Origin: Chiloscyllium plagiosum
Lineage: Eukaryota
Assembly (NCBI RefSeq): GCF_004010195.1
Contig: NC_057752.1
Span: 9,433,323 to 9,497,322 of the forward strand
DNA: 64,000 nucleotides
Reading direction: 5' to 3'
Below are positions 5,053-64,000 of this stretch, one piece after another. The translations under genes and the position numbers were made by a program. Under the pieces are notes generated by a model that was not told the origin of the DNA, did not search any database, and saw only the letters and a list, made by a program, of their open reading frames with translations. The stretch's first letter is position 1, and each line of letters opens with the position of its first letter.

Positions 5053-5515
5053 AGTTGAAACTTTATTGCTGGAACAGCACAGCAGGTCAGGCAGCATCCA
5101 GGGAACAGGAGATTCGACGTTTCGGGCACAGGCCCTTCTTCAGGAATGAGCAGAGAGTGTTCAGCAGGAGAAGATAAAAGGTAGGGAGGAGGGACTTGGA
5201 GGAGGGGAGTTGGAAATGTGATAGGTGGAAAGAGGTCAAGGTGAGGGTGATAGGTCGGAGTAGGATGGAGGCGGAGAGGTCAACAAGAAGACTGCAGGTC
5301 AGGAAGGCGACGTGGTCGACGGTGCCCTCCACCGCATCTCCTCCACTTCCAACTCCCCTCCTCCAAGTCCCTCCTCCCTACCTTTTATCTTCTCCTGCTG
5401 AACACTCTCTGCTCATTCCTGAAGAAGGGCCTGTGCCCGAAACGTCGAATCTCCTGTTCCCTGGATGCTGCCTGACCTGCTGTGCTGTTCCAGCAATAAA
5501 GTTTCAACTTTGATA
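5053..5515. mobile_element. Family A hairpin element (inverted PLE terminal repeats)
   Basis: Arms 5053-5215 and 5347-5509 read as exact 163-bp reverse complements, separated by a 131-bp spacer. Confidence 0.85.
5415..5450 (+). ncRNA. Minimal type I hammerhead ribozyme motif, family A (mirror copy on minus strand at 5112-5147)
   Basis: ATTC-CTGAAGA-A-GGGC-ctgt-GCCC-GAAA-C-GTC-GAAT: stem I ATTC/GAAT, stem II GGGC/GCCC, GUC triplet, palindromic ACGT in place of helix III. Confidence 0.75.
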
Positions 5516-6384
5516 TCCAAATGAATCCAACAAGAACTGGACCAAGCATATGTGGTACTCATAATCTTCTTCATCCTAAGTATACGCATGATTTTACTAC
5601 AACTGCTAAGTATTTCATCAGTAATATTTTCAGCAACATAACACAAAACATCGCAGATAAGAAAAACTGCAGCATATTAACATGCCAAATTTCCCCTAAA
5701 GTAAATGCATTAAAATTCCATCAAATTTGACAATATTGTTATGTATTTGGCTTTAAGGGGTTAACACGTAGGGGGTTCCATACAACAGCCAAGCAGGGTG
5801 AGATCAATAGTTGTGATGTTGAGAAGATATGCTCTTCTTCATTAGGGTAAATAAAACCACAGAAAGTAGACAAAATCAAACACAAAATATTGCTGAGGAA
5901 AGGAGTGAACAAAGACAGAAATGGGAACTATTTAAATGTAAATCTATGATTCGCTCCAGTAATAATATCTAACAATATTCAATATCTAGGATCATACCAA
6001 AAGAGTACTTTGAAGTATTAAAGGGATTTTCTGCTATCTAGTGATCTCTGAGGCATGAAGTTTCCCTTTCTTGATATGTGCAAGATCAAGACAAACACTA
6101 GGCATACAGTAACAGTGATATCACCGCAGGGAGTTGGCAGCCAATTACACTGAAGTATTCTCAAACAGCAAATCAGAAAGTAAAATGCAGTAAAATCTTC
6201 TACTCAATTAAAATTTCCACAGAGTAAATACAAATCATCAGTGATACACATGGGATTAAAGTAGCTGAAATATCATAACTTTTTTTTAAATTTGAAAAAA
6301 ACATTATTGCCATAATAATGGCAAAAAAGCATCCCAGTGATATAACATTAGATTTCTATGAGTAACTATTGAGTTATTAAAATT

Positions 6385-6915
6385 AAATTGCATTTATATA
6401 GTAACTGTTATGGCCACAGAAAGATCCAAAATGCTTTACAGCCAATAAAGTACTTTGGAAGTACAGTCAGTGTTGACACATAGCAGGCAATTTACATGTA
6501 GCAAGCTCCCACAAAAAGAAATGCTGTACTAATTATTGAAAAAATATTGACTATGACACCTGGAACAACTTTCTCATCAGTGGTGAGGTTCTGGAACCCA
6601 CGAGTTCAAAGGGTAATACAGGCAAAAACCATAATCACATTAAAACATGCGGTGGAACAGTCAATGGGTTTAGGAATCAAAATTTGGAGAGTGGGATTAG
6701 TGTGACGAGGTATTCATCGACTGGTATGGACATAATGTGCCAGACGACTACCTTCTGTGCATGAAATCTTACTGTGTTTTCTATGTATCTATAACTCTTA
6801 TTAAAAATAGTGCCATTGGCTCTTCTATGTCTACATTAGAGGACAGACAGGCCTTCACTTAGTAGGCTCTCGTCAAAAAGATAGCAGCTTAAATCTTCCA
6901 ACTTCCCTCACTGGA
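6385..6915 (-). mobile_element. DeuSINE (SacSINE1-like), interrupted by a CR1 3' fragment at ~6575-6790
   Basis: ttgcatttatatag...gctttacagccaat...gcaagctcccacaaa...aaatagtgccat; antisense to the copy at 42745-43115. Confidence 0.6.
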
Positions 6916-6920
6916 TTGGA

Positions 6921-7265
6921 ATGTGTTGCTGGAAAAGCGCAGCAGGTCAGGCAGCATCCAGGGAACAGGAGAATCGACGTTTCGGGCATAAACCCTTCTT
7001 CAGGAATGAGGAAAGTTTGTCCAGCAGGCTAAGATAAAAGGTAGGGAGGAGGGACTTGGGGGAGGGGCGTCGGAAATGTGATAGGTGGAAAGAGGTCAAG
7101 GTGAGGGTGATAGGCCAGACTGGGGTGGGGGCGGAGAGGTCGGGAAGAAGATTGCAGGTTAGGAAGGCGGTGCTGAGTTCGATGGATTTGACTGAGACAA
7201 GGTGGGAGGAGGGGAAATGAAATTTTCAGCTCTGATCTCCAGCATCTGCAGACCTCACTTTCTCC
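6921..7265. mobile_element. Family A PLE end on minus strand with inverted 3' tail; hammerhead motif on minus strand at 6972-7007
   Basis: Minus strand cctgaagaagggtttatgcccgaaacgtcg; plus-strand terminal tail gatctccagcatctgcagacctcactttctcc ending at 7265. Confidence 0.75.
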
Positions 7266-7639
7266 TAGCCATAGTGAAGCCACACAGTGTCTAACTCAAT
7301 GACTCGTCTCTGGTAAATACGAACGTTGTTGATCTCCTCTTGTGTTGAAATCAGAAACAGACATGAAGGTGACAATTGGAAGCCACCCACCCTGCACTGA
7401 GACTGAAGCCAGCCGTCTCTGGTTTGATGTTTTCAAGAAAGACCTTTATATCTGCGATGGGAAGATTTGGGTGTCAATCTTACAAGGTAATGCAACAATA
7501 TCATTAAGGTAGAGATGGATTGTTTGTAGTGCCACCCCTCAGTGAAGTTGTTAATGAATAAATAGAATACATAAAGAAAGAAAGTCACATTTGTATGAAC
7601 CTCAGCAAGGCTCATTACGGTCAATGAAATTTTTTTTAC

Positions 7640-7780
7640 TCAGCCAATGAAACAGGGCACAATAAGCTCCCACAAACAGCAATATGATAGTTGCCAAGTG
7701 ACCTGCTTTTGCAATGTTGATTGGTCAGGACTCCAGGGTTAACTCCCTTACTATTCTTTAAAATTGTGCTATGGTATCTT
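7640..7780 (-). mobile_element. DeuSINE fragment
   Basis: cagccaatgaa...agctcccacaaacagcaat...aattgtgctatggtatctt, similar to 6385-6915. Confidence 0.55.
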
Positions 7781-7786
7781 CTCCCT

Positions 7787-7876
7787 CTGTTCCCTGGATG
7801 CTGCCTGACCTGCTGTGCTGTTCCAGCAATAAAGTTTCAACTTTGATCTCCAGCATCTGCAGACCTCACTTTCTCC
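7787..7876 (+). mobile_element. Family A PLE 3' terminus
   Basis: Near-identical to 5454-5515 plus the terminal tail. Confidence 0.75.
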
Positions 7877-7959
7877 TCTGTTTTTTTTTAACCAATTACA
7901 TTCAACCTGAGACCTTGGCTTGGTAATTTTCCTGACTGTGAAAACAGTCCCTACTCTCT

Positions 7960-8545
7960 TGACACTTCTCTATCAGGAACAAATGGAGAAGTATTGGTAC
8001 CTTGGGAATGGTGCTATTGGAAGTTAAAAAAAATGAAGTAGCATTTATGTTAAATAATTACAATGTGTTAGTAGAAGAGGAGGGTAGTATACGGGACATC
8101 CCAGGGAAACAAATTCTGAATCAGAGCTAGGAACTCACCAAATTTAACATAAGCAAAATTATTAATTAACAGAAAGATGCACTTAAAAGTGACAAATCTT
8201 AACACAAATGATTTTCAGTCCAGGACTTTAGAGGAAACAGGTTCAAAAATTGCAGATTATCTATTATCTTCCGGTGTTCTCTTGATTTGGGAACCTTTCC
8301 TTCAGTTTCTCTCTCTGTTATTTAAAACTGGTGAGAGAGAGAAACCAGTAATTGTAGACCAGTTACCTAACATCTATTGTTGGAAATTTCTAGAGTTGAA
8401 GGATAGAGTGACTGAATACCTTGAACATTTTAAGTTGAACAGAGAGAATCAGCACAGAGTTGTAAGAGATAGGTCATAGCTAAGTGTTTGGATATTTTGA
8501 AGAAATAACTTCTAGAAGGCATTTAATAGAAACCCCTCATAAGAG
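7960..8545 (+). mobile_element. Old CR1 ORF2 fragment
   Basis: Degenerate RT N-terminal motifs (LFKTGEREKP, LKDRVTEYLE..ENQH) in ORF 8177-8479. Confidence 0.6.
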
Positions 8546-11259: not shown

Positions 11260-11715
11260 CAACATGGCTTTGTACGTGGGAAATCATATCTCACAAACTT
11301 GATTCAGTTTTTTCAAAAAGTAACAAAGAGAATTGATGAGGGCAGAGCGGTAGACGTGATCTATATGGACTAGGCAAAAGTGAGAACTACAGATGCTGGA
11401 GATCAGGGTCGAGAGTGTGGTGCTGGAAAAGCACAGCAGGTTAGGCAGCATCCGAGGAGCAGGAGAAGCAGGAGAGATATCTCTCCAACCTCTTGGCTCA
11501 CAGCCCCATTCCTGAATGTCGATTCTCCTGCTCCTCGGATGCTGCCTGATCTGCTGTGCTTTTCCAGCACCACACTCTCGACTGGTGAGCTATGTGGACT
11601 TCAGTAAGGCATTCAACAAGGCTCCCAGTGGGAGACTGGCTAGCAAGGTTAGATCTCATGGAATACAGGGAGAACTAACCATTTGGGTACAGAACTGACC
11701 TCGAAGGTAGAAGAC
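11260..11715 (+). mobile_element. CR1 RT fragment, interrupted by a family A hairpin
   Basis: HGFVRGKS.LTNLI.FF.KVTKRIDEGRAVDVIYMD continues after the insertion as DFSKAFNK.P.GRL.SKVRSHGIQG. Confidence 0.8.
11372..11584. mobile_element. Family A hairpin element with TSD
   Basis: gtcgagagtgtggtgctggaaaagcacagcagg... and its reverse complement ending 11583. Flanked by gtgatctatatggact (11356-11371) and gtgagctatgtggact (11585-11600). Hammerhead core largely deleted. Confidence 0.75.
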
Positions 11716-13012: not shown

Positions 13013-13712
13013 AGAGTCATAGAGATGTACAGTACAGAAACAGACTCTTCGGTCTAACTCATCCATGCTGACCAGATATTCTAAATTTGTCCAGTCCCAT
13101 TTGCCAGCACATGGCCCATATCCCTCTAAACTCTTCCTATTCATATACCCATCCAGATGCCTTGTAAATGCTGTAATTGTACTAGCCTCCACCACTTCCT
13201 CCGGCAGCTCATTCCATACATGTACCAGCCTCTGCATGAAAAAGTTGCTCCTTAGGTCTCTTTTATATCTTTCCCCTCACCATAAACCTAAACCCTCTAG
13301 TTCTGGACTCCCCCAACCCCAGGGAAATGACTTTATTTATTTAACCTATCCATGCCCTTCATGATTTATAAGGTCACCCCACAGCCTCCAACACTCCAGG
13401 GAAAACAGCCCCAGCCTGTTCAGTGTCTCCCTATAGCTCAAATCCTCCAACCCTAACAACATCCTTGTAAATCTTTTCTGAACCCTTTCAAGTTTCACAA
13501 CATCTTTCTGATAGGAAGGAGACCAGAACTGCACGCAATATTCCAACAGTGGCCTAACCGATGTCCTGTACAGGCGGAACATGAACTCCCAACTCCTGTA
13601 CTCAATACTCTGACCAATAAAAGAAAGCATACCAAACGCTTTCCTCACTATCCTATCTACCTGCAACTCCACTTTCAAGGAGCTATGAACCTGCACTCCA
13701 AGCAACACTCCC
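13013..13712 (-). mobile_element. CR1 ORF2 C-terminus and 3' tail
   Basis: GVQVHSSLKVE.QVDRIV.KAFGMLSFI...LEYCVQFWSP...LERVQKRFTRML. Confidence 0.9.
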
Positions 13713-17329: not shown

Positions 17330-18020
17330 TGTGCTACAAGAATTGCCGGATGACTAGCCAAGCTGTTCCAGTACACTTACAACACTGGCATCAACCCAGC
17401 AATGTGGAAAATTGCCCAGGTATGTCCTGTAGACAAAAAAAACAGGACAAATCCAAACTGGCCAATTACCTAATCATCAGTCTATGCTTGATCATCCATA
17501 AACCGATGGAAGGGGTCATCAACAGTGCTATCATGCAGTACTTGGTTAACAATAACCTGCTCACTGACACCCAGTTTGGTTCTGCTAGGGCCACTCAGAT
17601 GCTAATCTTATTACATTCTTCCTTCAAACCTGGACAAAAGAGCTGAATTCCAGAGGTGAAGTGAGAGTGACTGCCCTTGACATCAAAGCTGCATTTGACA
17701 GTGTGCAAATGACATTATCATCACTGAATTTGCTTCTAAAAACATCAAGGAGCCCTCGCAAAACTAGAGTCAATGGGAATCGGGGGATAATTCTTTGCTG
17801 GCTGGAGTCAAAACAGAGAAAGATAGTTGTGGTTATTGAAGTTCAATCATCTAAGCTGCAATATATCACTGCAGGAGTTCCTCAGGGTATTGTCCTCGGC
17901 CCAGACATCTTCAGCTGCTTCAATGACCTTTCCTCCATCATAACAGGAGGACAACAGCATCAAATACATGGATAGACCACCACCTAGTTCCCTTCCAAGC
18001 CACTCAACATCTTGACTTGC
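17330..18020 (+). mobile_element. Non-LTR RT fragment (second CR1/L2-group family); 3' end resumes at ~20290-20480
   Basis: KKQDKSKLANY..ISL..I.K.MEGVIN, VTALDIKAAFD, AGVPQGIVLGP; same family at 56280-57250 and 61760-63260. Confidence 0.75.
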
Positions 18021-19846
18021 ACCCCACTATGCTAACATTTTCATGTACGAGTTCAAACAAGACTTCTTTGCTGCACAGGATCTCCAACCAGCACTATACA
18101 CCAGATATACTGGCAATATTTTCTTCCTCTGGATCCATGGCGAGGAGTCACTGAAACAACTACACAGTGATATCAACAAGTTTCCTCCCACCATCAGACT
18201 CACCATGGAATACTCTTTAGTATCAGTCTCATTCTTGGACACACACATCTCGCGCACCTTAGTACCTCACTCTACTGCAACCCCATGGATAACCTCACAA
18301 TGGTGCACTTTCCTAGATTCCACAAGAAACATATTAAAACAGCCATCCCTTATGGACAAGCCCTGCACATACACAGGATCTGGTCAGATGAGGAGGAACA
18401 CAACAGACACCTGAGGGTGCTCAAGGATGCCCTCGTAAGAACAGGGTATGATGCTCAACTCATCGATTGCCAGTTCCAACGTGCCACAGCGAGAAACCGT
18501 AATGACCTCCTCAGGAGACAGACATGGGATGCAGCCGAGAGGGCACCCTTCACTGTCCAGTACTTCCCGTGAGTGGAGAATCTATGCCATGTTCTTTGCA
18601 GCCTGCAACACATTATCAATGAAGATGAGCACCTCGCCAAGACCTTCCCTACATCTCCACTTCTCACCTTTAAACAACCGCCAAACCTTAAGCAGACCAT
18701 TGTTCATAGCAAACTGCTCAGCCTTCAAGATAGCATCGACCACAACACTGTATAACCCTGTCATGGCAACCACTGCATGACATGTCAGTGTGTCGACACG
18801 GATATCACCATTATACTTGGGGACACAACCAACCACATGCACAGCAGGTACTCATGTGACTCGACTAACATTGTCTATGTCATATGCTGCAGGCGAGGAT
18901 GCCCAAAGGCATGGTACGTTGGCGAGATCAAGCAGAATAAATGGACGCGCAACAATCACCAGACAGATGTTCCCTCCCAGTCGGGGAACACTTCAGCTGT
19001 CAGGGACATTTGGCCTCGAATCTTTGGGTGACCATCCTCCAAGGTGCACTTCGGGATACACAACACCACAGAGTGGCTGAGCAGAGGCTGATAGCCAAGT
19101 TCAGAACCCATGAGGATGGCCTCAACCGAGACATTGGGTTCATGTCACACTACAGGTGACTATGCACTCTCTCTCTCACACACACTCATACATTCATGCA
19201 GACCGTCTCTCATACACACACTTGCTCTCGTACACACACACACATATACAGCTCCACCCACACACACACACCCTCTCACAGGCTTATACTCCATCACACA
19301 CACACTTTACCATGCATGCACACACACAAACACACACTCTCTCACATGCACACACTCTGTCTCTCTCTCTCTCTCTCATGCAGGCACACACACATATGTC
19401 GATGGGGTGAATTTGTATTTGCAGAATTATATTGGCCGATACATTCTATTTTGCTCAAAAATGTACAATCTGCAGGCAGTCAATCCATGTAATATTTTAT
19501 AAGTTCCTACTTTGGAAATAGAACCAGTCGGACTCAAGATTGGGATACAGATAGCTCTAAGCTCACACCTTTAATGCATTGTCTGAGCTGAGATGTCACC
19601 TTTTTTATAAAACCTTAAGCTATCTCAAGTATGTGTTGTAAAAGAAGTTCTGAGATTTACATATTAATGAACCAAAACCTGCAACCCATTCTAAAAGATG
19701 AAAGATTTAACAGAAATCTAGATTTGTTCATTACTTGTATATCATTTCAGTTGCATGACATTCTAATCTTTTGCTATAAATTCTGCATCTTACGATCCTC
19801 TTTCATGGAGCAGCACTCTGAAGGCTAGTGCTTCCAAATAAACCTG
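18020..19846 (+). mobile_element. 5'-truncated Penelope-like element, Neptune type (RT end, Cys-rich linker, GIY-YIG, 3'UTR)
   Basis: YANIFM..., LYTRYTGNIFFLW (decayed RYIDD), VSFLD, IPYGQAL.I.RI.S, CHGNHCMTC, YSCDSTNIVYVICC...WYVGE, DGLNRD; frameshifted; ends in a decayed family C terminal repeat. Confidence 0.85.
19165..19396 (+). repeat. (CA)/(CT)-rich microsatellite within the PLE 3'UTR
   Basis: Imperfect CA/CT tracts. Confidence 0.9.
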
Positions 19847-20261
19847 ATTTGGAGATGCCGGTGTTGGACTGGGGTGTACAAAGTTAAAAATCACACAACA
19901 CCAGGTTATAGTCCAACAGGTTTAATTGGAAGCACACTAGCTTTCGGAGCAACGCTCCTTCATCAGGTGATTGTGGAGGGCTCGATCGTAACACAGAATT
20001 TATAGCAAAAATTTGCAGTGTGATGTAACTGAAATTATACATTGAAAAATTGATTGTCTGTTAAGCCTTTCATCTGTTAGAATACAGTGATAGTTTCACT
20101 TCTTTCACGTGTAAATCACAAAACCCTTTTTTTTAAAGTTGCATTCTCAGGTTAGCTGTTAACAATGGTGATAGCTAGACAATAAGCGTCGCTCCGAAAG
20201 CTAGTGTGCTTCCAATTAAACCTGTTAGACTATAACCTGGTGTTGTGTGATTTTTAACTTT
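19846..20261. mobile_element. Family C hairpin element; hammerhead motif on minus strand at ~19936-19969
   Basis: Arms 19880-19956 and 20185-20261; unpaired tail 19846-19879; minus strand cac-CTGATGA-a-GGAGC-gtt-GCTCC-GAAA-G-CTA-gtg. Confidence 0.8.
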
Positions 20262-23066
20262 AGTCCAACACCAGCTCCTCCACCTCATAGACATATATCA
20301 CCATTCTTTCAGTGTTACTGGATCAAAATCCTGGAACTTTCTCCCTAACAGCATTATAGATCTCGCTACACTAAACTAACTGCAGGAGTTTAAAAAGGTA
20401 GCTCACCATCACCTTTACAAGGGGAACTAGGGATGGGAAATAAATGCTGGCCCCACAAGCGGTACTCACACCTCACAAATTTATTTCTTAAAATTAAGGA
20501 GAGTTTTTCTCAACGTTAGGAATCTGATTTTTTTCACTCATGCCTGATTGAGTCATTATGCTCTCCAACATTGTCACCACCTCAGAGAGAGCAAAATCTG
20601 CACTTTGAAGCAATTGAAGCTCATGGAATTGAAGACAAATTATTCACCTCGTTAGAAAATGGACTCTGCAGCAGAAGTAAGGATAATGAGCAGATGCACT
20701 AATTGGCAGAATGTGACTGACTCTGCAAGGACCTCTGTTGCAGATTTAATTCTTACGATATTTAGTAACAACTTATGTTAAATAGAGTTGTATACCTTGT
20801 AATTGAGAAAGTTAAGAGGAGGGGGCTGGTGGTAATGTCCCTACCTCTGAGCCAGGAGGTTTGGGTTCAAAATCTCACATCTTTGAATAGGTTGATTAGA
20901 AACTTAAGAGGTAATTTAATCAAAGTTTTAAAAAAAAATTATTGAGAACAGAGAGGGGAGATAGAGTTAGCACATTGGGACATTTAATTAAGCTAATTAA
21001 GTAAACTGGTTAAATCTGGTTCTTGAAGCAGGGCAGGTCTTACAAGTTTAAAAACCAAGGCCTACTAGTCCTAGCATGGAGTGTGAATTACAGACAGTGA
21101 GCTTGGTTGTTTGTTCTGAAAGTTTTTGTAAGGTGCTGCTAGTTACATCTAAGAACAGGCATAGGTGGATACTGGGTTTTGAGGGGGACAAGCAGCAACA
21201 AGGTAAGACCCCTTTTTTTTCCCATAAGTCTCCTAGTTGTTAAAGGAGCTGAGCTGGCATTTAGTGGAGTGGTACCCTTCTGTCAGATGTGGGAGATCAG
21301 GGAGTAGTTGAATGTCCTTGGTGACTATCTACAGGAACTGTCTAGCTATGGTTTCCCTCCAACAATCGCCAGACAGTTGGAAGTACAGGAGTATGTAGGA
21401 GGTAGAGAATGTGGATAGATGGCTACTTCAGGGGTGTTGTCACACTGCTGGTTCAGTCCAGGGGAGGCTAGCCGCTTGTGCAGGGGATGGATGGATGGAT
21501 GCAGGGATGGATGGATGCAGGGATGGAGTGAAGATCGGTCTTGATCGATTAAACTGCATTTCATCTAAGTGAAAGAGGCCTGACATTAAGGCAGATAAAT
21601 GTATGGATTGGAACTGGGATATTGTAGCTATTACAGAAACATGGTTGCAGGAGAGAACTGGCAGCTGTGTTGGGGTACAGATGCAATAGGAAAGACAGCA
21701 GGGAAGGCAAGAGAGGAGGGGGAATGGCGTTTATTAGGGAAAACCTCTCCAAAAATACTTAGAGGATACTTCTGACGATCATCCAATGAAGCAATATGGG
21801 TGGAACTGAGAAATAAGGTTATTACTTTGGGACTGTACTATAGACCTCCTAAAGTCAGTGAGGAAATTGAAGAATAAATATGAAGGGAGATAGCTGCCAG
21901 AATAAGAATTGTAATAGCAGGGGGTTTTAATTTTCCAAATAGAGTAGGATTGCCATAGTATTTAGGATTTGGATTGGGGAGGAATTTGATCACATTTTGA
22001 ACACAATGTGGATGGCCCTACTACAGAAAAGGCAAAATGTTTCCTCTTGGGAAATAAAGCAGGGTAAGTAGCTGAGGTGTTAGTGGGGGAACACTTTGGG
22101 ACCAGTGGATGTAATTCTGAGCTTTAAAATCCTTTTATGGAAAAGGATAGGCCTGGTCCACCAATTAAAGATCAGAATTGGCCTTGTTCCAATTAGACAG
22201 GAACTGCCCAAGTTGACTGGGGCAAGGGGAGGCTGTTTGCAGGAAAAACCTGCATATAGCAAGTGGGAGACTTTCAAAAGTGAGATAATGAGAATTCAGG
22301 GCTAGCATGTTCTTATAAATGTGAAGGGTAAGGCTAATAGAAGTAGGGAACCTGAGATGACTAGACACTTGAGGCCAGAAAAAGGAGGTACATGGCAGGT
22401 GCAGACAGCTGGGATCAAGTGTACCCTTGAGGGGTACAGGAGGTGTAGGAGTACACTTGAGGGAAATCAGAGCAAAAAGGGACATAAGATTGCTTTGGCA
22501 AATAGGGAAAGGAGAAACCAAAGATTCAACAGTATGTTAAGGGCAAAGGGATAACCTGGGAGACAATAGGGTCCCTTAAAGATCAATGTTTCCATCTGTG
22601 TGGAACCATGGGAGATGGTTGAGATCCTAAATGAATATTTTGTATTGGTATTTGCTGTGGAGAATGCTAGGGAAGCCAGGGAACTCTGAGATATTGTGCT
22701 ATCTGAAAACAGTCCAATTTACAGGTCTTAAAACATGTATAGGTAGGTAAATCCCAGGATCTGATCAAGTCTATCCCAAGACACTATGGGTAGCTGGGGA
22801 GAAAGCTATGGGGACCCCGAGCAGAGACACTTGTATCATTGACAGCTATGGGTGAGGTACCGGAAGACTCGTGGTTAGCTAATATTGTACCTTTCTTTAA
22901 GGCTGCAAGAAAACACTAGAACCACAGACCAGCTAGTCTAATGTCAGTGGTGGACAGGATCAACATGCATTTGGAAAGGCAAAGACTGATTAGGAATAAA
23001 TAGCATAGCTTTGAGCATGGGGAAATTCTTCAATTGTTTTTTTTTTTTGGAAGAGGCAACCAAGAG

Positions 23067-23573
23067 ATGTGTTGGACTGGGGTGGACCTAGTTTAAAAAT
23101 CACAGAATACCCGATTAGTCCAACAGCTTTATTTGGAAGCACTAGCTTTCAGCATTTCACCTTCAGGTAGCTGAAGAAGCAGTGCTCTGAAAGACCAGAT
23201 GGGCCAATGGGCTGAGAAGTGGCAGATGGATTTTAATTCAGATAAATGCAAGGTGCTGCATTTTGGGAAAGCAAATCTTAGCAGGATTTGTACACTTAAT
23301 GGTTAGGTCCTAGGGAGTGTTGCTGAACAAAAACCTTGGAGTACAGGTTCATAGCTCCTTGAAAGTGGAGTCGCAGGTAGATAGGATAGTGAAGAAGGCG
23401 TTTGGTATGCTTTCCTTTATTGGTCAGAGTATTGAGTACAGGAGTGGGGAGGTCATGCTGTGGCTGTACAGGACATTCGTTAGGCCACCGTTGGAATATT
23501 GCATGCAATTCTGGTCTCCTTCCTATCGGAAAGCTAGTGCTTACAAATAAAGCTGTTGGACAATAACCTGGTT
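23067..23573. mobile_element. Old family C hairpin interrupted by a young CR1 fragment (~23194-23529)
   Basis: gtgttggactggggtg...gcactagctttc...ctgaagaagcagtgctctgaaag | CR1 | gaaagctagtgcttacaaataaagctgttggacaataacctgg. Confidence 0.65.
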
Positions 23574-24184
23574 ATGAATCTTGTAAAACAAGATGTAGGC
23601 AGAGCAGTAAACATTGTTTGCATGGACTTTAGGAAGGCCTTTGACCAGGTTCCACATGTTTGACTGATCGTAAGGTCATGTGGGATCCAGAGAGCTAGCC
23701 AATTGGACACAAAATTGGCTTGTCAGTAGGAGACCGGTGGTGATAGAAGGTCACTGTTCAGACTGGAGGCCTGTGACCAGCAGTGTACTGTAATGATCAG
23801 TGCTGGCTCCATTATTGTTCATCACTTGTATTCTTATCCAAATCATTTGAGGCATGGTTAGTAAGTTTGCAGATTACCCCAAAATTGGTGGTGTGGTTGA
23901 CAGTTAAGGTTATTTAAGAGTGACTGACTGGATCCTGATCAACTGGCACCATGGGCTGAGGAATGGCAGACATAGTTTAATTCAGCTGGATGCATTTTAG
24001 TCAGAAAAACCAGGGCAGGGCTTGCACAGTTAATGGTAGTATCCTGGAGTGTTGTCAGTGACCTAGGGGTGCAAGTATATAGTTTAAAGTGCCACCACAG
24101 GTAGACTGTCAGTTGACATGCTTGCCTTCAATCAGAGCACTGAGTACAGGAGTTGTGACATTGTTACAGCTGTACACGACTGCT

Positions 24185-28386: not shown

Positions 28387-28722
28387 CACTACATTGGACA
28401 AATAGGTAGAAAACTAGCCACCAGGATACATGAACATCAATTAGCCACAAAATGACATGACCCTCTTACTAGTATCCTTACAGATGAAGGACACCACTCT
28501 GACTGGGACAACATCAATCCTAGGACAAGCCAAACAGATGAGAATTCGTAGAAGCATGACATTCCAACCAGAACTATCAACAAACAGACTTGGATCCCAT
28601 TTACCACCCTCACCTGAGAACCGGAAATGACATCACCAACCCAAATATAAATAGAAAGCAGGAATCAGCAATGCTTTGTCTGGAGGTCACTGAAGATGTT
28701 ACCTCATATGGTAATGAAACAC
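28387..28722 (+). mobile_element. Penelope-like element, Poseidon type: GIY-YIG end plus family B hammerhead remnant
   Basis: HYIGQIGRKLATRIHEHQLATK*HD...DWDN..ILGQAK...INK..LDPIY; then CTGAAGA-t-GTTACC-tcatat-GGTAAT-GAAAC at 28690-28720. Confidence 0.75.
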
Positions 28723-30494: not shown

Positions 30495-31165
30495 AGATGC
30501 CAGTGTTGGACTGGGGTTGACCAGAGATTAATAAATCAACACCAAGTGATAGTCCAACAGATTACTTTGAAGTACAAGCTTTCATAGTGCTGCTCCTTCT
30601 GTCAGGTAGATAGGGCAGTATTATAGGACACAATTTTATAGTAAAAGATGTCATATAACTAGATGTATTGTACAAACCTAGATTGCTGTTATGTCTTTAA
30701 TCACTTTGGAAATGTGTATTTTGATTTAATATGTAAATCCCAGAACTACTTTCAAGTCAGTCCTGAGAACTTGAGGTCTTATTTTTAAAGTGACATCTTG
30801 GCTCAGATAATGCATTAGGATGTGCAGTTAGTCTGTATGTATCCCAACCTTGTCAGAATAATTCTAATTTGGAAATTGAATCAATAAAATGTCATATGGA
30901 CTGACTGTCTACACATTCTATTTCATTCAAAATAGAATCTATCGGCAAATGCAAATTTGCCCCATAGATATGTGCACACGAGTGCATGGGTGAGTGTATA
31001 GTGTGGTGAGGGTCACATGGTGTGACATGAACCCAAGGTTCTGATTGAGTCTGTCCTCAGCTACTAGAGTTAGCTATCAGTCTCCGCCTGGTGACTGTGT
31101 ACCCCAAAGTCTGCCTTGGACAGTCACCCAAAGATCCAAGGTTGAATATCCTTGATCGTTGAAGT
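30495..31165 (-). mobile_element. Neptune-type PLE 3' end, degenerate
   Basis: agatgccagtgttggactgggg tail; antisense to 19020-19846 (catgaaccc...ctgtcctc...agctatcagtctc). Confidence 0.7.
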
Positions 31166-31577
31166 GCAGCATTGTTATCTGTGGGCTTGAGGTAGCGAAG
31201 TATTGAGGTGCCTGTCTTGGAGATCTCTCCTAGTGAGACTTGATTGATTCTAAAGAGGAGTCCATGGTCTAGGTAGGCTATCTAGTGACCCCTGCTGGAA
31301 AGTTTGAGGCTATAATTCAACTCCACTGAGCTCCATCTGCTTGTCACAATGGAGTTGCTTGCTCAGGCTTACAGGTGGGGGGGAAAAAACAATTCAAGAA
31401 TGTAGGGTTTCCAAAATTCACAATTGTATTTCTAGTGTGAAGAATGGGAGGAGGGTGTTAGTTTTTCTCCATTCCTCTATATGCAGAGATATCTTCAGCT
31501 TTGTAGTGATTTTGAGATCCTCCTGGCTGATCTCATTACAATGAGTTCCCTGATTGAGACTTTGGGGGGGGGGACAA

Positions 31578-38869: not shown

Positions 38870-40855
38870 CAGTAGCACCTCAACTTACAAACTTAATCCG
38901 TTCCAGGACCCGGTTCGTGAACTGAATCAATGTTCACATTGTTCGGATATTTCTGGAGTTTTTTTTTGTCTCTTGGAGGTTAGTGATGCCACAAGAAAAC
39001 GATCCAGAGAAACTTGTTTTTTTTGTTGCAGAATTTGCCAAAAATGGGACATCACATTGTCATTTAAAACGTTCACTGCTCTGTTGGTCACAGTTTTGTT
39101 AGGGTGATGCCTCTCAACAAAAGCCTGCACTTTTCACTCCATTTGCTACAAATGGCTTTGATTTGAACACTTGATACATCTTCCCTCCTCTTCCGCCTCT
39201 CCAGAATGCTCCTGCTGCACTTCAAGATCTTCTGTGGTGAGTTCTTGTCTGTGGTCCTCCACCAGCTCTGCCACATCATCCTCATTGACCTGCAAGCCCA
39301 TATTTTGGCCCAGGGTCACAATCTCATTCACTACATTTACTGATGTCTCCTCAAAACCCTCAGTCTCTCTCAGGTACACAATCTGGCCAAAGTTTCCTCC
39401 AGGCTGACTGTAACATACAGAAAGAGACCTCGTTCCATGCCTTATCAATAAGGCTTATGCAGTGGAGGATACTGAAATGGTCCTTCCACTACTGACCAAG
39501 GGTCAAATCTGTGGCGTTAGTGACCTAGAAACACCTGGTGAACAGAGCCTTCGTATATAATTTTTTGAAATTTGCAATGACATTCTGGTCCATGGGTTGG
39601 ATGAGAGGAGTGGTGTTGGGAGGAAGGAACTTTGCTTTTATGAAGTCCTATTCAATGTCCAAGTCTTCTTCCAAATTTGCTGGATGGGCAGGAGCATTGC
39701 CCATTACTAGAAGAAACTTAAGTGGCAAATTATTTGTTTCAAGATATTCCTTGACAGCTGGTGCAAAGACTTCTGTCAACCATTCCATAAAATTCATTCG
39801 CGTGACCCAAGCCTTGCTATGCGCCCTCCACATTACTAGCAGTTTAGCCTTCAACACATTATTGCATTTAAAAACGCGAGGATTTTCAGAGTGGTAGACT
39901 AATAGAGGCTTAATCTTGCAATCCCCACTTGCATTCGCACACAATAAAAGTGTTAACCTGTCCTTCATTGGTTTGTGGCCCAGTAGTGCCTTCTCCTCTT
40001 GGGTTATGTAGGTCCTTTTGGGCATTTTTTCCAGAAAAGTCCAGTTTCATCACAGTTAAAAACTTGATGTGAGACATAACCTTCATCTTCAACAAACTTT
40101 ATTGAATTCCTTCACAAAGTCCTCCGCTGCCTTTTCGTCTGAACTTCTCCATGCCTTATTACACTATGGATTCCAGTTCGTCGACAAAATTTATCAAACC
40201 AGCCTTTGCTGGCTTTAAATTCTTCAACGCTAGCAGTACTTGTACTCAGCGATATCACCAACAAATCACAGTGTATGTGTAGAGCCATCTCGCAGATTAT
40301 AGTCTCTTTAACACTATCTCCAGGAAGCTCTTTTTGATTTATCCAAACTAATAATTTTTCAACCTCGTCTAACAATTTAGGCCTTTGCTTCGTTAAAATA
40401 GTCACTCCTTTAGCCATGTCAGCTGCCTTTAGTGCCTCTTTGTTCTTTAGGATAGTACAGATAGTTGATTTCGCCATGTTGTACTGCATACCAAGATCAG
40501 ATACACAAGCACCATTCTTGTGTTTAGCTATTATTTCCTTCTTTGTTTCTACAGTAATACGTTTAGGCTTCTTAACACCACTATCACTACCACTTTTCAC
40601 TTTCTTGGGAGCCATATTGAGGGCTAATTTAATGCAAAAAACAAAAAAAAAGCATAAGAATGCTTGGACGTTGGATGTTCACAGCGCGTGCGCCAAAGAC
40701 GAACTGAATGAGATCACGCGGGGCCCGAGAGCATTTGCATTCAAAGCGAGCGTAGCAAAGCAGAACAATGACAATGAAACCACGGGCTTTTTGCGTTCGT
40801 GCCTTGAATTTCGTACGTACGTTGACAGGATCGTTCGTATGTCGAGGCGCTACTG
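38870..40855 (-). mobile_element. Full-length Tigger/pogo DNA transposon (TIGD1-like transposase, frameshifted)
   Basis: TIRs CAGTAGCACCTCAACTTACAAAC (38870-38892) and reverse complement of 40833-40855 agree at 19/23; TA on both flanks. CENP-B HTH ORF 40112-40615 and DDE ORF 39648-40025 (KDRLTLLLCANASGD, NAPAHP). Confidence 0.92.
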
Positions 40856-46099: not shown

Positions 46100-46400
46100 G
46101 TTGCCTGAGGGGCAACTTTTTCAGGCAGAGAGTGATGCATGAATGGAATGAGCTGCCAGAGGAGCTGGTGGAGGCAGGTACAATTACAACTTTAAAAAGC
46201 ATCTAGATGAGTGCATGAATAGAAAGGGTTTAGAGGGATTTGGTGAAAGTGAGGACCGCAGATGCTGGAGATTAGAGTCGAGAGTGTGATGTTGGAAAAG
46301 CACAGCAGGTCAGGCAGCATCCGAGCAGCAGGAGAGTTGACATTTTGGGCAAAAACCCTTCGGGGTCTGTTTCTGTACTGTACAACTCTATGACTCTAAG
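46100..46400 (+). mobile_element. CR1 3' end with nested family A fragment (46244-46361, minus)
   Basis: cctgaggggcaactttt...tggaatgagctgccagagg; aaagtgaggaccgcagatgctggaga...gcaggtcaggcagcatcc. Confidence 0.7.
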
Positions 46401-46589: not shown

Positions 46590-47480
46590 AACAGCAGATT
46601 GTTTGAGGCGGAGGTAAAGATGGGTGGTGCTGTGTTGGGTGCCAAGGTTAGGGACAGTCTGATTCTGCCTCAGACAGCAGCCAAGGAAGAAAAATTCAGA
46701 TTAGATAACAGACAAGTAGATTGGCAACACAGTGTTTGAAAGAGATAGTAGAATGGAAGAGCTCAGTGCTGTTAGTAGTTTAAATCTGAATTTGCATCTT
46801 CAAATTATGTTGCCAATGGTCAGAATATATTCTGATAAATAGGATTACACCAAGGATAGATCTTTGGGGGTCACCAGATGAAATGGTGCTGGACGCAGGA
46901 TGACAACAGATGTGTTCTAATAAACAGTCAGTGGACTGAAAACATTAACTCTGCTTCTTTCTTACACATGCTGCCAGACCTGCTGAGTTTCGCCAGCAAT
47001 TTCTGTTTTTGTTTCAGATCTCCAGCATTCACAGTTCTTTGTTTTACTATGCAATTGAAGACAATTATTTGGCTCTGACAGAATGTGTAAGAGCGTAATA
47101 CAGCTGAAAAACTAGATTGTGTTGGGATATCTGGTTGGCATGGACGAGTTGGACTGAAGGGTTTGTTTCCATACTGTACATCTCCAAGACTCTATAAAAA
47201 TAGTTCTATTTCAGATGGATGGTAGAAGAGAACATTGGAGAAACGCAGTATGGCAAACCAAATCAAAGGCTGCAAGTAGGTCATGGATGATGTGAAGAAA
47301 TAACTTATCATGGTCATAGTAACAAGAGTACCAACTTATAACGTTAAGTAGGGTCACTTCAGTGCTATGTCAGGCCACATTGGTGAAATCCAAACACAGT
47401 TGCAGTAAAGAGAGGTACAGATTTGGGAGGAGACAACACCTTCAAGAATTTGGAAAAGGAGATAATACTTTGAATTAGTT
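46590..47480 (-). mobile_element. Old L2-type fragment with nested family A-like (46925-47045) and CR1-tail (47110-47195) pieces
   Basis: aggattacaccaaggatagatctttgggggtcaccag is the antisense of a GVPQGS.LG-like motif. Confidence 0.45.
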
Positions 47481-51300: not shown

Positions 51301-52121
51301 GGCCAAGGATTAATTGTGCTCTGGAATAGTAATGTTGATATGTGGCTGGAATTCAAATGTAAGGGCATTGTCCCAAAAATGTTAATTTGCTCCTGCTCGC
51401 TCGCTTGCTTTCTCTCCAGATGCTGCCTGACCTGCTGACTTATTCCCAGAATTTTATTTTATTAGAGAAACAAATAATTGTCCCCGCCTCCTTCCTCCTC
51501 AATGATATGAGCTGTGTATGCATTATAAGCAAGATACTGTGTGTGCAATAAGAAATGTGCCATATTGACACGTAAAAGGAGAGAGTAACAATCCTATAGC
51601 TTTGTGATTATCGTGCATTAAGTGTTTTATAATGCCTGAAAGGGAGATAAAAGAATGTAGCATTCACATTTAAAATCCTTGAAATTTAACTGTCAGTACA
51701 GAAGGGCTGGGTTATCGCTTTCCTATCTTGAAAAACTGCAAGTACAGAGGTCAATCAGTCTCAAACACTGCTGTGTTGAACAAGTAAATATTTAGTGATT
51801 TTTACAGGCATCAAATGATAAGCCTATATGCTTTAAAGATACAGTTTTTAAGGCTTGGAGCCTTTTGAGCTGCACCCCCATAGTTGGGTGTAGTGTTGGG
51901 GCTTTTTGCTAACCTTCATCCTATATTCAGGGTGGGAATGTATATTGAGTTGGGGTAAATGCGTAGATAATGATTTGCAACTTCTTACGATTTTAGCCAG
52001 AAACATGTCTGGGTAGAGAAACAAATTTCCATTCTCCTGACATCATGTACAGAGTAGGCTTGATATTCATTATGTACATCCAGTATTTATAGATGCTTAG
52101 AATATCACTCATGAAAAGCTG

Positions 52122-52349
52122 CCATGATTTGGAGATGCCGGTGTTGGACTGGGGTGTACAAAGTTTTAAAAAAATCACAACACCAGGTTATAGTCCAACA
52201 GGTTTAATTGGAAGCACACTAGCTTTCGGAGTGTCGCTCCTTCATCAGGTGGTTGTCAACCACCTGATGAAGAAGCGACACTCCGAAAGCTAGTGCTTCC
52301 AATTAAACCTGTTGGACTATAACCTGGTGTTGTGATTTTTTAAAAAACT
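52122..52349. mobile_element. Family C hairpin element with 11-bp TSD
   Basis: Arms ~52164-52255 and 52257-52345 meet at a 1-nt centre; TSD atgaaaagctg at 52111-52121 and 52350-52360. Confidence 0.85.
52217..52251 (-). ncRNA. Minimal hammerhead motif, family C (plus-strand copy at 52261-52295 has one stem II mismatch)
   Basis: CAC-CTGATGA-A-GGAG-cgaca-CTCC-GAAA-G-CTA-GTG; palindromic AGCT replaces helix III. Confidence 0.7.
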
Positions 52350-55017: not shown

Positions 55018-55266
55018 AGGGTGTAGGTTTGCTCACTGAGCTGTGGGTTTGATAGCCAGACGTTTCATTACCTGGCTAGATAACATCATCAGTGGCGACC
55101 TCCAAGTGAAGCGAAGCTGTTGTCTCCTGATTTCTACTGCTGTTAACAGGAGACAACAGCTTCGCTTCACTTGGAGGTCGCCACTGATGATGTTACCTAG
55201 CCAGGTAATGAAACGTTTGGATATCAAACCCACACCCTAAACCTCAACCTGAGCTACAAACCTTGC
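55018..55266. mobile_element. Family B hairpin element with 13-bp TSD
   Basis: Arms 55042-55129 and 55147-55234 (88 bp, 3 mismatches), 17-nt loop; TSD aaaatgcttcctt at 55005-55017 and 55267-55279. Confidence 0.88.
55055..55096 (-). ncRNA. Minimal hammerhead motif, family B (plus-strand copy at 55181-55220 with GUU triplet)
   Basis: Minus: GCCA-CTGATGA-T-GTTATCT-agcc-AGGTAAT-GAAA-C-GTC-TGGC. Plus: CCA-CTGATGA-T-GTTACCT-agcc-AGGTAAT-GAAA-C-GTT-TGG. Confidence 0.75.
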
Positions 55267-60431: not shown

Positions 60432-61165
60432 AGGTAAGGTTCTAGGGAGTGTTGCTGAATAAAGAGACCTTGGGGTGCAGGTTCATAGCTCCTTGAAAAT
60501 GGAGTCGCAGGTAGATGGGATAGTGAAGAAGGTGTTTGGTATGCTTTCCTTTATTGGTCAGAGTATTGAGTACAGGAGTTGGGAGGTCATGTTGCAGCTG
60601 TACAGGACATTGCTTAGGCCACTTTTGGAATATTGCATGCAATTCTGGTCTCCTTCCTATCGGAAAGATGTTGTGAAACTTGAAAGGGTTCAGAAAAGAT
60701 TTACAAGGATGTTGCCAGGGTTGGAGGATCTGAGCTACAGGGAGAGGCTGAACAGGCTGGGGCTGTTTTCCCTGGAGCATCGGAGGCTGAGGCGTGGCCT
60801 TACAGAGGTTTACAAAATCGTGAGGGGCATGGAGAGGATAAATAGACGAAGTCTTTTCCCTGGGATCGGGGAGTCCAGAACTAGAGGGCATAGATTTGGG
60901 GTGAGAGGGGAAAGATTTAAAAGAGACCTACAGGGCAACTTTTTCACGCAGAGGGTGGTACGTGTATGGAATGAGCTGCCAGAGGATGTAGTGGAGGCTG
61001 GTACAATTGCAACATTTGATGGGTATATGAATAGGAAGGGTTTGGAGGGATATGGGCCAGGTGCTGGCAGGTGGGACTAGATTGGGTTGGGATATCTGGT
61101 CAGCATGGACTGGTTGGACCAAAGGGTCTGTTTCCATGCTGTACATCTCTGACTCTGACTCTAAT
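60432..61165 (+). mobile_element. Young 5'-truncated CR1 with open ORF2 C-terminus
   Basis: Uninterrupted 201-aa ORF 60475-61080 ending AGRWD*, then 3' tail with (ctctga) repeats. Confidence 0.92.
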
Positions 61166-61759
61166 TGCCCAGAGCAGTTAAGAGTCAATTTGCTGATGAC
61201 CCAAAGGTACGTAGGAAAGTGACTTGTGATGGATTAAAGTGTATTTCTGTTACAGAAACTGGTCCTGCAATTCAACACATTTTAAGCTGGTGTTTGTGCA
61301 ATTCTTGCAGTCCCTTCCTGCCATCAACATTATCCTTCAGAAAAGGGTTAGGGAGGCAGTACCCAGATGGGGCTCGTGGGGAGAAAGCTGATAGGAGGGA
61401 ATCATCAAAAATGTTACCAACAATTAACTACACCTGATTGGCAGTGGCAACCCTTGAAGACTGAATCCTACATGATCCAGCAAGGGGTGATGGGTAGGTC
61501 TTTTGAAGGAAAAGTGACATCAGCAGCTGCAGAAACAAAGTTATTCAGCAACATTGAAGCAGAATCAACCAGGATGGGCACTATTGGGAACTAGCTCAGT
61601 TGGGTGAAGAATTCCTTGGAGGAGACCGACTAGAGTGGAATAGAGGTTAAGTAGGGAATAGACTTTGTTGAAAATAGCAGCCATAGTCAAGTCCAAAATA
61701 GTTTGTTAGGGATGAGATTGGATCTTTCCCTAGAGTCCAACAGCAATAAAGTGAGCCTG

Positions 61760-63260
61760 GTCTGGCCAATTACCACCCCATCAGTTATACACTCTACCTC
61801 TTTCACTTTCACTGATAAAAATGATCAATCACAATGCTATTGAGCAGCACTTGCTCAGCAATACCCTGCTCATTAACTCTGTTTGAATTCAGCTCTGACC
61901 CCTCAGTTCCTGATCTTGTTACAGCCTTGGTCCAAACATGGACAAAATAGTTGCAGTCCAAGTGAAGTGAGAGTGACTGCCCTTGATATCAGGTTGCATT
62001 TGATAGTGTGGCATCAAGGCGCAATAGTTGAGTGTAGTGCTGAGGGTTTACTCCTGAAGAAGGGCTTAGACTCAAAACGTCGATTCTCTTCTCTTCCTTG
62101 GATGCTGCCTGACCTCCTGTGCTTTTCCAGCACCACACTCTTGACTCTGATTTCCAGCATCCGCAGTACTTCCTTTCTCCCATCAAGGAGCAGTACCAAA
62201 GCTGAAAACAATGGGATGCATTTGAGTGGGAAAATTCCTCCTGCTATTTGGAGTCATACCTGGGACAAAAGCTGATTGTGATTTGTTGGAGGTTTATCAT
62301 CCTGGGGCTGAGATATCTCTGCACGAATTTCTTGGGTTAGTGTTCTCGGCCTAGCCACCTTCAGCATCATCAATGACCTTCCCTCCGTTATAAGGTCAGA
62401 AGTGGGAACGATTGCTGATGATTGCACAACATTCAGCACCATTCGTGACTCCTCAGATACTGAAATAGTCTATTCTAAATGTGGCAACACCTGGATAATA
62501 TCCAGACTGGGGGCTAACAAATAGCAAGTAACAAAAAATAAGAATTGCTGGAAAAATTCAGGTCTGACTGCATCTGTGGAGATAAATCCAAGTTAATGTT
62601 TTTGGTCTAGTGACCCTCCTTCAGAATGCCACTAACATTCACTTCATGTTGGTGCTAGGCAATGAGCATCTCTAACAAGAGAATTCAACCTTGATGTTTG
62701 GCATAACTGACTAAATACCCCCAAGATCAACACCCTGGGGGTCATCACTGACCAGCAACTCAACTGGACAAGCCATGCAGATACTGTGGCTGGCCGAGGA
62801 AGCCAGAGGCTAGAGATCCTGCAGTGAGAAGCTCTCCTCCTGACTCCCGATAGTCTGTCCACCACTTGCAAGGCACAAGTCGGGAGTGTGATGGAATACG
62901 CTCCATTTTTCTGGTTAGCTCAGTTCCGACAACACTCGAAGAAACCCCATTTGAAGACAAAGGAATCCACTTGACACCACATCCACAAATGTCCATTCCC
63001 TCTTTCACTAACTGAGTGAGTAGCAGCAGTGTGTACTATCTACAAGATGCACTGCCAAAATTCAACAAAGATTCTTAGGTGGCACCTTCCAAACCCACAC
63101 CATCCTGAGTTGGAAATGTATCACTGTTCTTTCAGTGTTGGTGGGTTCAACTCCTGAAACTCCCTCTCTGACAGCATTGTGGGTCTACTGAAAGCACATG
63201 ACTTGCAGGTTTTAAGGAGGAAACTTGCTGCCACCACCACCTTGACGCTGACTGTGGATG
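61760..63260 (+). mobile_element. Non-LTR RT fragment (same family as 17330) with nested family A pieces
   Basis: EVRVTALDI, FS.INDLPSVIRSEVG.IADD, LGVITDQQLNWTSH. Confidence 0.75.
62027..62180 (+). mobile_element. Family A PLE end with TSD; hammerhead GAAA mutated
   Basis: cctgaagaagggcttagactcaaaacgtcg; flanked by catcaaggcgcaata (62012-62026) and catcaaggagcagta (62181-62195). Confidence 0.7.
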
Positions 63261-63593
63261 GACAACATGTTTTGTACTGCAGAGCAGGAGCAGTCCTAAA
63301 GCTCTAGGGTACACACCAGTTGATGGGAACCAACACTAGATTGTAACTAGTTACATTAAAACTGAATAGAATAGAGTAGCAGAGTCACAACAACCAATTT
63401 TAACAGTGGTATTCCGAGAGGACAGGAAACCAAATGTGAGTAGAATTAAAACAGGAGCAATACTGGAAGAATACTGAGCATTTTGTTTTCTCTTAAATGT
63501 TTTGGCTTAAAGTTGCCCTTTGGTGAGCTGATTTATATATGTTGAATGGATTATAGTGCATTTGTGATCTGTGCTTGGTTAAATAGTACAAAC

Positions 63594-63901
63594 CTGAAAA
63601 TGTGTTGCTGGAACAGCGCAGCAGGTCAGGCAGCATCCAGGGAACAGGAGAATCGACGTTTCGGGCATAAGCCCTTCTTCAGGGGAAAAAAAAACAAACA
63701 CCTGTTAAATTTTAACCATTTTTTTTTTTAAATTAAAAAATGGTCTTAAACTAGGAAAAGATGCAAAGATAACAGCTCAAAACAGCTTATGCCCGAAACG
63801 TCGATTCTCCTGTTCCCTGGATGCTGCCCAACCTGCTGCGCTGTTCCAGCAACACGTTTTCTGCTCTGATCTCCAGCATCTGCAGACTTCACTTTCTCCC
63901 C
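63594..63901. mobile_element. Family A hairpin element with 13-bp TSD; hammerhead core on minus strand at 63654-63683
   Basis: Arms 63596-63672 and 63785-63861; tail to ~63900; TSD aaatagtacaaac at 63581-63593 and 63902-63914. Confidence 0.85.
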
Positions 63902-64000
63902 AAATAGTACAAACAACAATTGAAAGTGAATTTCAGAAACTTTTATTTGTTAATGATGTTTCTCACCACCGTTCCTTTCTTTGCCTGATACATAACTTTT

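Follow-up and report, generated by a model that had tools for sequence, protein, structure and literature searches.

An inverted, 5'-truncated copy with a tail of 30–40 bp on one side is described as the typical layout of a Penelope-like element (PLE) insertion (PMC8557442), and the terminal repeats of these retroelements carry minimal hammerhead ribozymes, which occur as dual motifs 100–700 bp apart on opposite strands and, in masses, as solo motifs derived from truncated PLEs (Cervera and De la Pena 2014, PMC4209133). In a rotifer PLE, host DNA was found between two direct terminal repeats and one inverted terminal repeat, with a target-site duplication (TSD) and an empty site (PMC3846280). 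Animal retrozymes, in turn, are head-to-tail tandems with one hammerhead per unit, and they were reported in the one chondrichthyan sampled (PMC7229834; bioRxiv 10.64898/2026.07.22.740005).

Here, we analyze a 64-kb stretch of the genome of the shark Chiloscyllium plagiosum (64,000 nt; contig NC_057752.1, positions 9,433,323 to 9,497,322), referred to as the window, using its sequence together with four public sequencing runs (three DNA and one RNA), protein searches, and published papers. A preliminary description made from the letters alone had noted seven non-coding, hammerhead-bearing inverted-repeat insertions and offered two explanations for them, namely inverted PLE insertions with extreme 5' truncation, or a non-autonomous, retrozyme-like hairpin system, in a shark genome. 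We find that the first explanation applies, as decayed PLE coding sequence within the window adjoins two of the three sequence families and the anatomy is as published. Very probably, the hairpins are truncated head-to-head PLE ends, each with its own center, and each likely arose in a single event as it inserted instead of being propagated in hairpin form. Ends of this kind, with their minimal hammerheads, tails, and inverted copies, are already on record for PLEs, and the hairpins are not a new mobile family.

Hairpin families, hammerhead cores, and target sites

All seven inverted-repeat insertions are real. Six of them appear as strong inverted repeats (at 5053, 11408, 19880, 52164/52217, 55042, and 63589) with a length of 39–166 nt and a complementarity of 93–99%, whereas the one at 31578 is not in the list of strong repeats and is recognizable only by BLAST and alignment, as a decayed pair. 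They fall, as first described, into three sequence families: family A (5053, 11372, and 63594), family B (19846, 31578, and 52122), and family C (55018). Additional copies are present at 257–366, 6920–7266, 23069–23590, 28650–28720, 30490–31166, 46242–46361, and 62047–62181. Our literature search found no paper on these shark families, and repeat libraries (Repbase, Dfam) may well list them.

We carried out the proposed descriptor scan for minimal type I hammerheads and obtained eight cores in the window, six of which are intact with a stem I of at least 3 bp (3–4 bp; core position C3 at 5419 and 55184 on the forward strand and at 5143, 19966, 52248, and 55092 on the reverse strand); when 100 sequences were simulated from the window with a first-order Markov model, the same scan returned zero cores. 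The palindromes are ACGU in families A and C and AGCU in family B, and at 11372 and 31578 the core has decayed or been deleted, both as first noted. The core at 63594 had also been listed as closed by a stem I of 3–4 bp; in fact, the 5' strand of this stem is lost and 1 bp remains. Both arms contain an intact core at 5053 and 55018 only (two of the seven hairpins), and the second core at 52122 has a broken stem II. An Rfam search with E values up to 5 gave 12 matches, all under the gathering scores and mostly to microRNA models reacting to hairpins, and none to a hammerhead family. Because the three families are not alignable, their family-specific stems, as read from the sequences, are conserved pairing rather than phylogenetic covariation.

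These cores resemble the metazoan PLE hammerheads (PMC4209133) in the core boxes, the unpaired base before stem II, the family-specific stems, the palindromic 15.2–16.2 positions without a stable helix III, the dual motifs on opposite strands, and the predominance of solo truncated copies. They differ from them in the short stem II of families A and B (4–5 bp), in the G-U pair that closes stem II of family C in place of the usual G-C, and in the stem I mismatch of most family-A copies; sharks are not named in the excerpts of that paper used here.

Nine cores, six of them intact, were folded. When folded alone, seven of the nine are predicted to form stem II with a probability of 0.76–0.99, and stem I is predicted to be marginal save in family C. 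When five whole hairpins were folded, the modeled probability of stems I and II dropped to 0.00 for all eight cores, with 29–40 of the 36–42 ribozyme bases predicted to pair with the other arm. A transcript running across the hairpin is thus predicted to bury the ribozyme, and, given that the two ribozyme copies lie on opposite strands, we infer that neither would find a helix III partner or form a dimer in cis. Minimal hammerheads are reported to be inactive as monomers and weak as dimers (PMC4209133), and in an anole PLE cleavage required protein and the ribozyme was dispensable for insertion in vitro (PMC11167929). In one poly(A) single-cell RNA run, of which 2% was read, starts and ends did not pile up, which this type of library could hardly show, and no RNA data set was listed for 3600–8300; neither result is taken as evidence. 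The hammerhead would be a passenger of the terminal repeat of the element, and activity, if any, would be expected in tandem PLE transcripts, as a dimer or with the aid of PLE protein, and not in the hairpin.

TSDs of 11–16 bp with an AT content of 63–86% flank five of the seven hairpins: 16 bp with two mismatches at 11372, 11 bp at 52122, 13 bp at both 55018 and 63594, and a perfect 14 bp at 5053. The claim that TSDs of this length are frequent stands for these five and fails for 19846 and 31578. As a background, exact repeats of at least 10 bp occurred in 0 of 200 random position pairs. Two empty sites were identified. One is found in a related species (for the insertion at 5053–7876), and the other in a paralogue of the long interspersed nuclear element (LINE) that is interrupted at 11372; this paralogue, at 35610–35750, is uninterrupted and contains the site once, backing the TSD.

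Links to Penelope-like coding sequence

An old 5'-truncated PLE, apparently of Neptune type, lies on the forward strand at 18017–19846 and comprises a decayed reverse transcriptase (RT) end, a Cys-rich linker, a GIY-YIG endonuclease, and a CA-rich 3' region, and it closes with a family-B terminal repeat whose core is decayed. Its coding part (18017–19153) is the frameshifted end of an open reading frame (ORF) with RT motifs, a CX4CX2C linker, and the endonuclease, and the product is 64–68% identical to shark RT proteins (best four matches). These four homologues contain DKG and the same linker; all four match RVT_1 in Pfam (one below the cut-off), and one of the four matches GIY-YIG (E value of 8e-4). 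The decayed PLE pieces of the window themselves did not match any Pfam model. The order of RT, Cys linker, and GIY-YIG is the layout of Neptune and Nematis elements, and the CX4CX2C motif, present in the window product (P0001) and in the homologues (P0003–P0006), falls within the CX2-5CxxC criterion for the RT–endonuclease linker of Neptune, a motif that Nematis shares (PMC8557442). From the linker motif and the vertebrate host, family B is probably of Neptune type. The 3' region of the PLE passes into the decayed family-B terminal repeat at 19807–19846, and the long arm of the neighboring 19846 hairpin is homologous to this 3' region. The same continuity from ORF to terminal repeat is found in a second old family-B PLE end on the reverse strand at 30490–31166, which contains the last ORF codons, the 3' region, a decayed core, and a full tail.

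Family C is linked to coding sequence at 28387–28720 on the forward strand, where a putative Poseidon-type GIY-YIG endonuclease end (encoded by 28387–28610 and 80% identical to the Stegostoma RT protein P0161, which contains RVT_1 and no Cys linker) is followed by a family-C-like hammerhead core (C3 at 28690) whose 3' side is cut off. Across 43 nt, the sequence around this core shares 79% identity with the 55018 arm, and the core appears to represent a related family-C subfamily rather than an identical copy. Given that the Cys-rich linker is absent in P0161, family C is probably of the Penelope/Poseidon type. The nearest named proteins of the PLE pieces are from Heptranchias, Scyliorhinus, Mustelus, and Stegostoma, and no PDB entry is clearly related to the PLE protein (best E value of 0.49).

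For family A, the upstream read-through of 42 residues was searched against proteins with 0 of 79 candidates, and none of the retrieved proteins ends like it; likewise, the ribozyme motif had 0 matches in viral contigs and an upstream 21-mer had 0 matches in metagenome contigs. A family-A 20-mer matched 17 loci, all of which were rejected as chance matches of 20–26 letters without PLE proteins. It is by its anatomy that family A is provisionally placed among the PLEs.

Head-to-head arms and the origin of the hairpins

In all seven hairpins, the arms lie head to head with their 3' ends outward, and a tail is present on one side only, with a length of ~33–38 nt in family A, 37–40 nt in family B, and 28 nt in family C. 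In families A and B, the 3' ends have two positions relative to C3, one at about +85 to +91 and the other at about +123 to +126. From the three DNA runs, 55,699–71,050 contigs were placed on 4500–8400, nearly all on family-A parts. Among the 24 of 2709 rows listed, hundreds of contigs exit into heterogeneous AT-rich flanks, at 7265–7267, the tail end of a copy described below, and near 6920–6922, close to its tail-less end, the latter in part because the window copy diverges there.

This anatomy matches that of endonuclease-bearing PLE units (Penelope/Poseidon and Neptune; PMC8557442, PMC3846280) in the head-to-head inverted terminal repeats, the 5' truncation, the one-sided tail, the TSD, the palindromes at the inverted junction, and the ORFs with a C-terminal GIY-YIG domain upstream. 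Most window units differ from them in lacking coding sequence (~150–470 bp), the TSDs of 11–16 bp contrast with 8–10 bp in the rotifer examples considered, and the tail of family C has 28 nt. The AC-rich stem loop described for the Poseidon element of Anolis carolinensis (PAc; Frangieh et al. 2024, PMC11167929) was not confirmed in the window, as 3' stem-loops were no better than shuffles in six of six 3' pieces (z of −1.2 to +0.2).

The 5' ends, in contrast to the two places of the 3' ends, are scattered. Measured from C3, they lie at −166 or beyond, −75, +35, −216, ~+80, +30, +22 (or −5 with a deletion), −1, +8, +5, −2, and −5 to −11 in family A, at beyond −200, +10, −8, −7, +6, +31, +4, and +18 in family B, and at −37 (probably −54) and −37 in family C, with an additional ORF-linked copy in each of families B and C. 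About 10 of 24 arms begin within 12 nt of C3, which may be a loose clustering. A start of the arms at the ribozyme cut was considered and rejected, since 3 of the 24 arms (7787, the left arm of 11372, and the right arm of 31578) begin 2–7 nt past the predicted cut, which is about the chance expectation.

We next give the hairpins other than 5053 individually. The family-A fold-back at 11372–11584 lies inside a LINE fragment; its left arm is tailed, and the core is absent from the left arm and internally deleted in the right arm. The family-B fold-back at 19846–20261 is placed within the end of the old PLE; its left arm is tailed, ~330 nt long, and contains the intact core (C3 at 19966), and its right arm starts inside stem II. 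At 19846–20288, an older element of the same family surrounds this fold-back with its terminal repeat; ~45 nt of that old repeat are missing, and the old tail was apparently left beside it at 20262–20288. The decayed family-B fold-back at 31578–31732 has no intact core. The family-B fold-back at 52122–52349 is a near-perfect palindrome with a 1-nt center 7–8 nt upstream of the cores, the left of which is intact (C3 at 52248). Family C is represented by the putatively Poseidon-type fold-back at 55018–55266, which has two intact cores (C3 at 55092 on the reverse and 55184 on the forward strand) and its tail on the right. Finally, the family-A fold-back at 63594–63901 has a left core without stem I, a right arm that starts inside stem II, and, between the arms, a 101-nt AT-rich filler (63684–63784) that may derive from DNA beyond the window end. 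No source within the window was found for this filler, which is ~100 bp from the window end, or for those at the 5053 and 11372 junctions.

Uniqueness of the junctions had been set beforehand as the test against independent amplification, and we found that the eight mapped two-armed insertions of the window all have different centers. In six of the eight (5053, 6920, 11372, 31578, 55018, and 63594) the tail-less arm extends further 5' than the tailed arm, whereas the tailed arm is longer at 19846 and the arms are symmetric at 52122. Each arm of these six pairs therefore holds sequence that is absent from the other, and neither arm is a plain copy of the other. This asymmetry favors two separately primed cDNAs.

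We thus propose that the GIY-YIG endonuclease of a PLE would nick both strands of an AT-rich target 11–16 bp apart, and that each nick would prime reverse transcription on PLE RNA. The tailed arm would be the cDNA from an outer start site, and the tail-less arm would be the cDNA from an inner site 28–40 nt upstream. Both cDNAs would end early, often near the hammerhead, and would be joined head to head, with microhomology, filler, or a small palindrome at the joint or through a switch of template to host DNA, the last of which would account for the 2.27 kb of host-like DNA in the 5053–7876 insertion. The priming of two cDNAs by staggered nicks is what we infer from the arms; twin priming, a term taken from LINE-1 work, was not seen directly. 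For the protein of an anole PLE, nicking and extension of both strands of AT-rich DNA were reported, with two start sites, one on each side of the tail (PMC11167929).

The inverted arm could instead have arisen within the same PLE origin by fold-back self-priming, with a truncated cDNA or antisense RNA folding at a small palindrome and then serving as its own template. This was put forward for rotifer PLEs (PMC3846280), and it fits the 97–99% complementarity of the arms of young copies and the palindromes at several centers, namely at 52122 (1-nt loop, with arms starting at −8 and −7), at 11471–11486 (16 nt), and in the 63594 filler (30 nt, imperfect). It does not fit the six of eight pairs in which one arm has the tail and the other the longer 5' part. 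At 52122 itself, the arms differ by a 2-nt indel whose short form recurs in three other family-B copies, which is a weak hint of two templates. We consider self-priming somewhat unlikely as the general explanation.

The second explanation of the preliminary description, a non-autonomous, retrozyme-like system, does not hold for these seven hairpins because their centers differ, the window contains no head-to-tail ribozyme tandems (periods up to 500), and the cores lie on opposite strands. Non-LTR retrozymes are similar to the window units in that they are short non-coding repeats with type I hammerheads and are kin to PLE terminal repeats (PMC7229834; bioRxiv 10.64898/2026.07.22.740005); in contrast to the one-strand, head-to-tail retrozymes, the window units are head to head with at most one core per strand. 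A related possibility is that some of the fold-backs behave as non-autonomous hairpin elements, with PLE protein acting in trans to re-insert their transcripts as complete units. PLE terminal repeats can mobilize enclosed DNA in trans (PMC3846280), and a few joints among the 15 of 658 listed have a high summed depth, with one of them recurring in two runs. On the other side, no center is repeated among the eight in the window, the five listed arm-to-arm joints in the 5053 unit are at different places (four in one run only and none in all three), head-to-tail tandems are lacking, the ribozyme is predicted to be sequestered in the hairpin, and two intact cores are retained in just two of the seven hairpins. 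We regard such re-insertion as very unlikely.

Short inverted arms and TSDs would also be expected of DNA transposons of the miniature inverted-repeat transposable element (MITE) type with chance hammerhead-like motifs. Elements of this type have symmetric fixed termini and a fixed short TSD. The hairpins have unequal outer ends, TSDs of 11–16 bp, and differing centers, solo copies in a single orientation are common, and the arms run on into retroelement ORFs, which largely refutes a MITE origin; it is almost certainly wrong.

Several observations weigh against our conclusion that the hairpins are PLE ends built once at insertion. Family A, which accounts for three of the seven hairpins, could be joined to no ORF, and its longest copy in the window ends 216 nt upstream of the core. 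No TSD was found at 19846, and nothing above background was found at 31578. Among the 15 of 658 joints listed, some fold-back joints have a summed depth of 137–609 compared with 8–17 for unique flanks, and the joint 6996>7222 recurs in the two runs from the species of the window, each time with an identical four-letter spacer; high-depth joints could mean that some centers recur, although summed depth is not a copy number. The near-perfect palindrome at 52122 is explained equally well by self-priming. The unbridged junctions of the 5053–7876 insertion, described below, belong here as well.

Probable capture of host DNA and the wider record of insertions

The insertion at 5053 had been described as having a truncated tail. 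We find instead that it is one family-A insertion of 2.82 kb that extends to 7876 and is framed by the perfect 14-bp TSD (5040–5053 and 7877–7890). It begins with an inverted tail-less arm (5053–5309, reverse strand) that includes at least 166 nt upstream of its core; the minimal hammerhead here is intact, with C3 at 5143 and cleavage predicted after 5116. A 34-nt filler separates this arm from a direct arm (5344–5519, forward strand), which extends from 75 nt upstream of its core to 10 nt into the tail and whose minimal hammerhead is likewise intact (C3 at 5419, cleavage predicted after 5446). Then follow ~2.27 kb of host-like DNA (5513–7787) and a third terminal piece on the forward strand (7787–7876) that has the full 34-nt tail and no ribozyme and is identical at 56 of 56 positions to both 5053 arms, compared with 45–50 of 56 for five other family-A arms. 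In a contig from a related species (run X9, record 17), position 5039 is joined directly to 7877, which represents the empty site.

The segment has no second copy in the window by self-BLAST. In all three DNA runs, segment contigs continue for 926–1802 letters past 5513 and 34–41 letters past 7787, and these other flanks indicate a donor locus elsewhere. Compared with run X1, mismatches number 2 in 1431 and 0 in 545 letters of the segment, and one arm differs from the other at 1 of 166 positions, which marks both segment and arms as young. The longest stop-to-stop ORF in the segment is at most 92 codons. The whole resembles the rotifer capture (PMC3846280) in having two direct terminal repeats and one inverted one, host DNA flanked by the direct pair, a single TSD that encloses the whole, and an empty site; unlike the rotifer case, it is in a vertebrate host, contains 2.27 kb of apparently non-coding DNA, is very young, and carries an older PLE insertion inside.

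Alternatively, the segment could have come after the insertion, through repair or integration of a circle that duplicated 66 bp, or the join could be an assembly error. In agreement with this, the segment is flanked by a 66-bp direct repeat (5454–5519 and 7787–7852), and the junctions at 5519 and 7787 were bridged by no piece of two same-species runs among the 24 of ~200,000 listed. Since no bridging piece is listed, the unit, seen whole in this assembly only, may be polymorphic. Against both stand the agreement between the perfect TSD and the empty site of the related species, the microhomology of seven of eight letters between the left junction (5513–5520) and the element tail, the youth of both segment and arms, and the same layout published for rotifer PLEs, and we consider them unlikely. 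Separately, record 8 of run X1 (7881–8400) extends at 7881 by 42 letters that disagree with the window sequence, which hints at an empty allele in that individual.

The older family-A insertion within the captured DNA (6920–7266) has two parts: a 300-nt antisense tail-less arm, whose core at 7003 has a stem I of 2 bp, and an adjoining sense piece that measures ~45 nt and is nearly all tail. Its arms barely overlap, with the body inverted relative to the tail, and so it resembles a twin-priming inversion; no TSD was found for it. The related-species contig departs from the window sequence at 6918, and this insertion may be absent or different there. Outside the 5053 insertion and 1.3 kb from it, 3661–3735 on the reverse strand is likely the first coding exon of an STK39/SPAK-type kinase gene; its sole two PDB matches are weak and are both SPAK chains (E values of 0.2 and 0.43).

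Among the remaining copies, in a further family-B fold-back at 23069–23590, ~330 nt of a LINE split the right arm, and an identical five-letter sequence borders the split on each side; the LINE sequence was either captured at insertion or inserted later. Three solo family-A pieces were identified: a decayed piece at 257–366 (reverse strand) with a 14-bp direct repeat at its ends, a piece with a tail that starts inside the core at 46242–46361 (reverse strand), and a piece with a tail at 62047–62181 (forward strand) with a 15-bp flanking repeat that includes two mismatches. Older, more diverged pieces that resemble the 3' end of family A at 46960–47030 and 51412–51446 possibly represent a fourth PLE family or a subfamily. 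The window also contains a decayed pogo/Tigger-like DNA transposase at 39648–40678 on the reverse strand (Pfam HTH_Tnp_Tc5, CENP-B_N, and DDE_1) and many 3' fragments of a LINE family that are 83–94% alike (13021–13702, 34545–36031, 60433–61150, and others), one of which matches RVT_1.

The young and abundant shark copies are a natural record of PLE insertion, a process that is still unsettled. The 5053–7876 insertion provides a clean vertebrate case of a PLE-linked duplication of 2.3 kb of host DNA, and it lies upstream of a likely kinase gene. A more far-reaching view, which we regard as quite unlikely, is that the shark PLE machinery routinely captures kilobases of unspliced host DNA at sealing and that some fold-back cassettes are re-mobilized whole in trans, as a non-autonomous, hammerhead-bearing system that spreads copies of host sequence through a vertebrate genome. 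If captures such as this one are frequent, PLEs would be a route of small segmental duplication in sharks.

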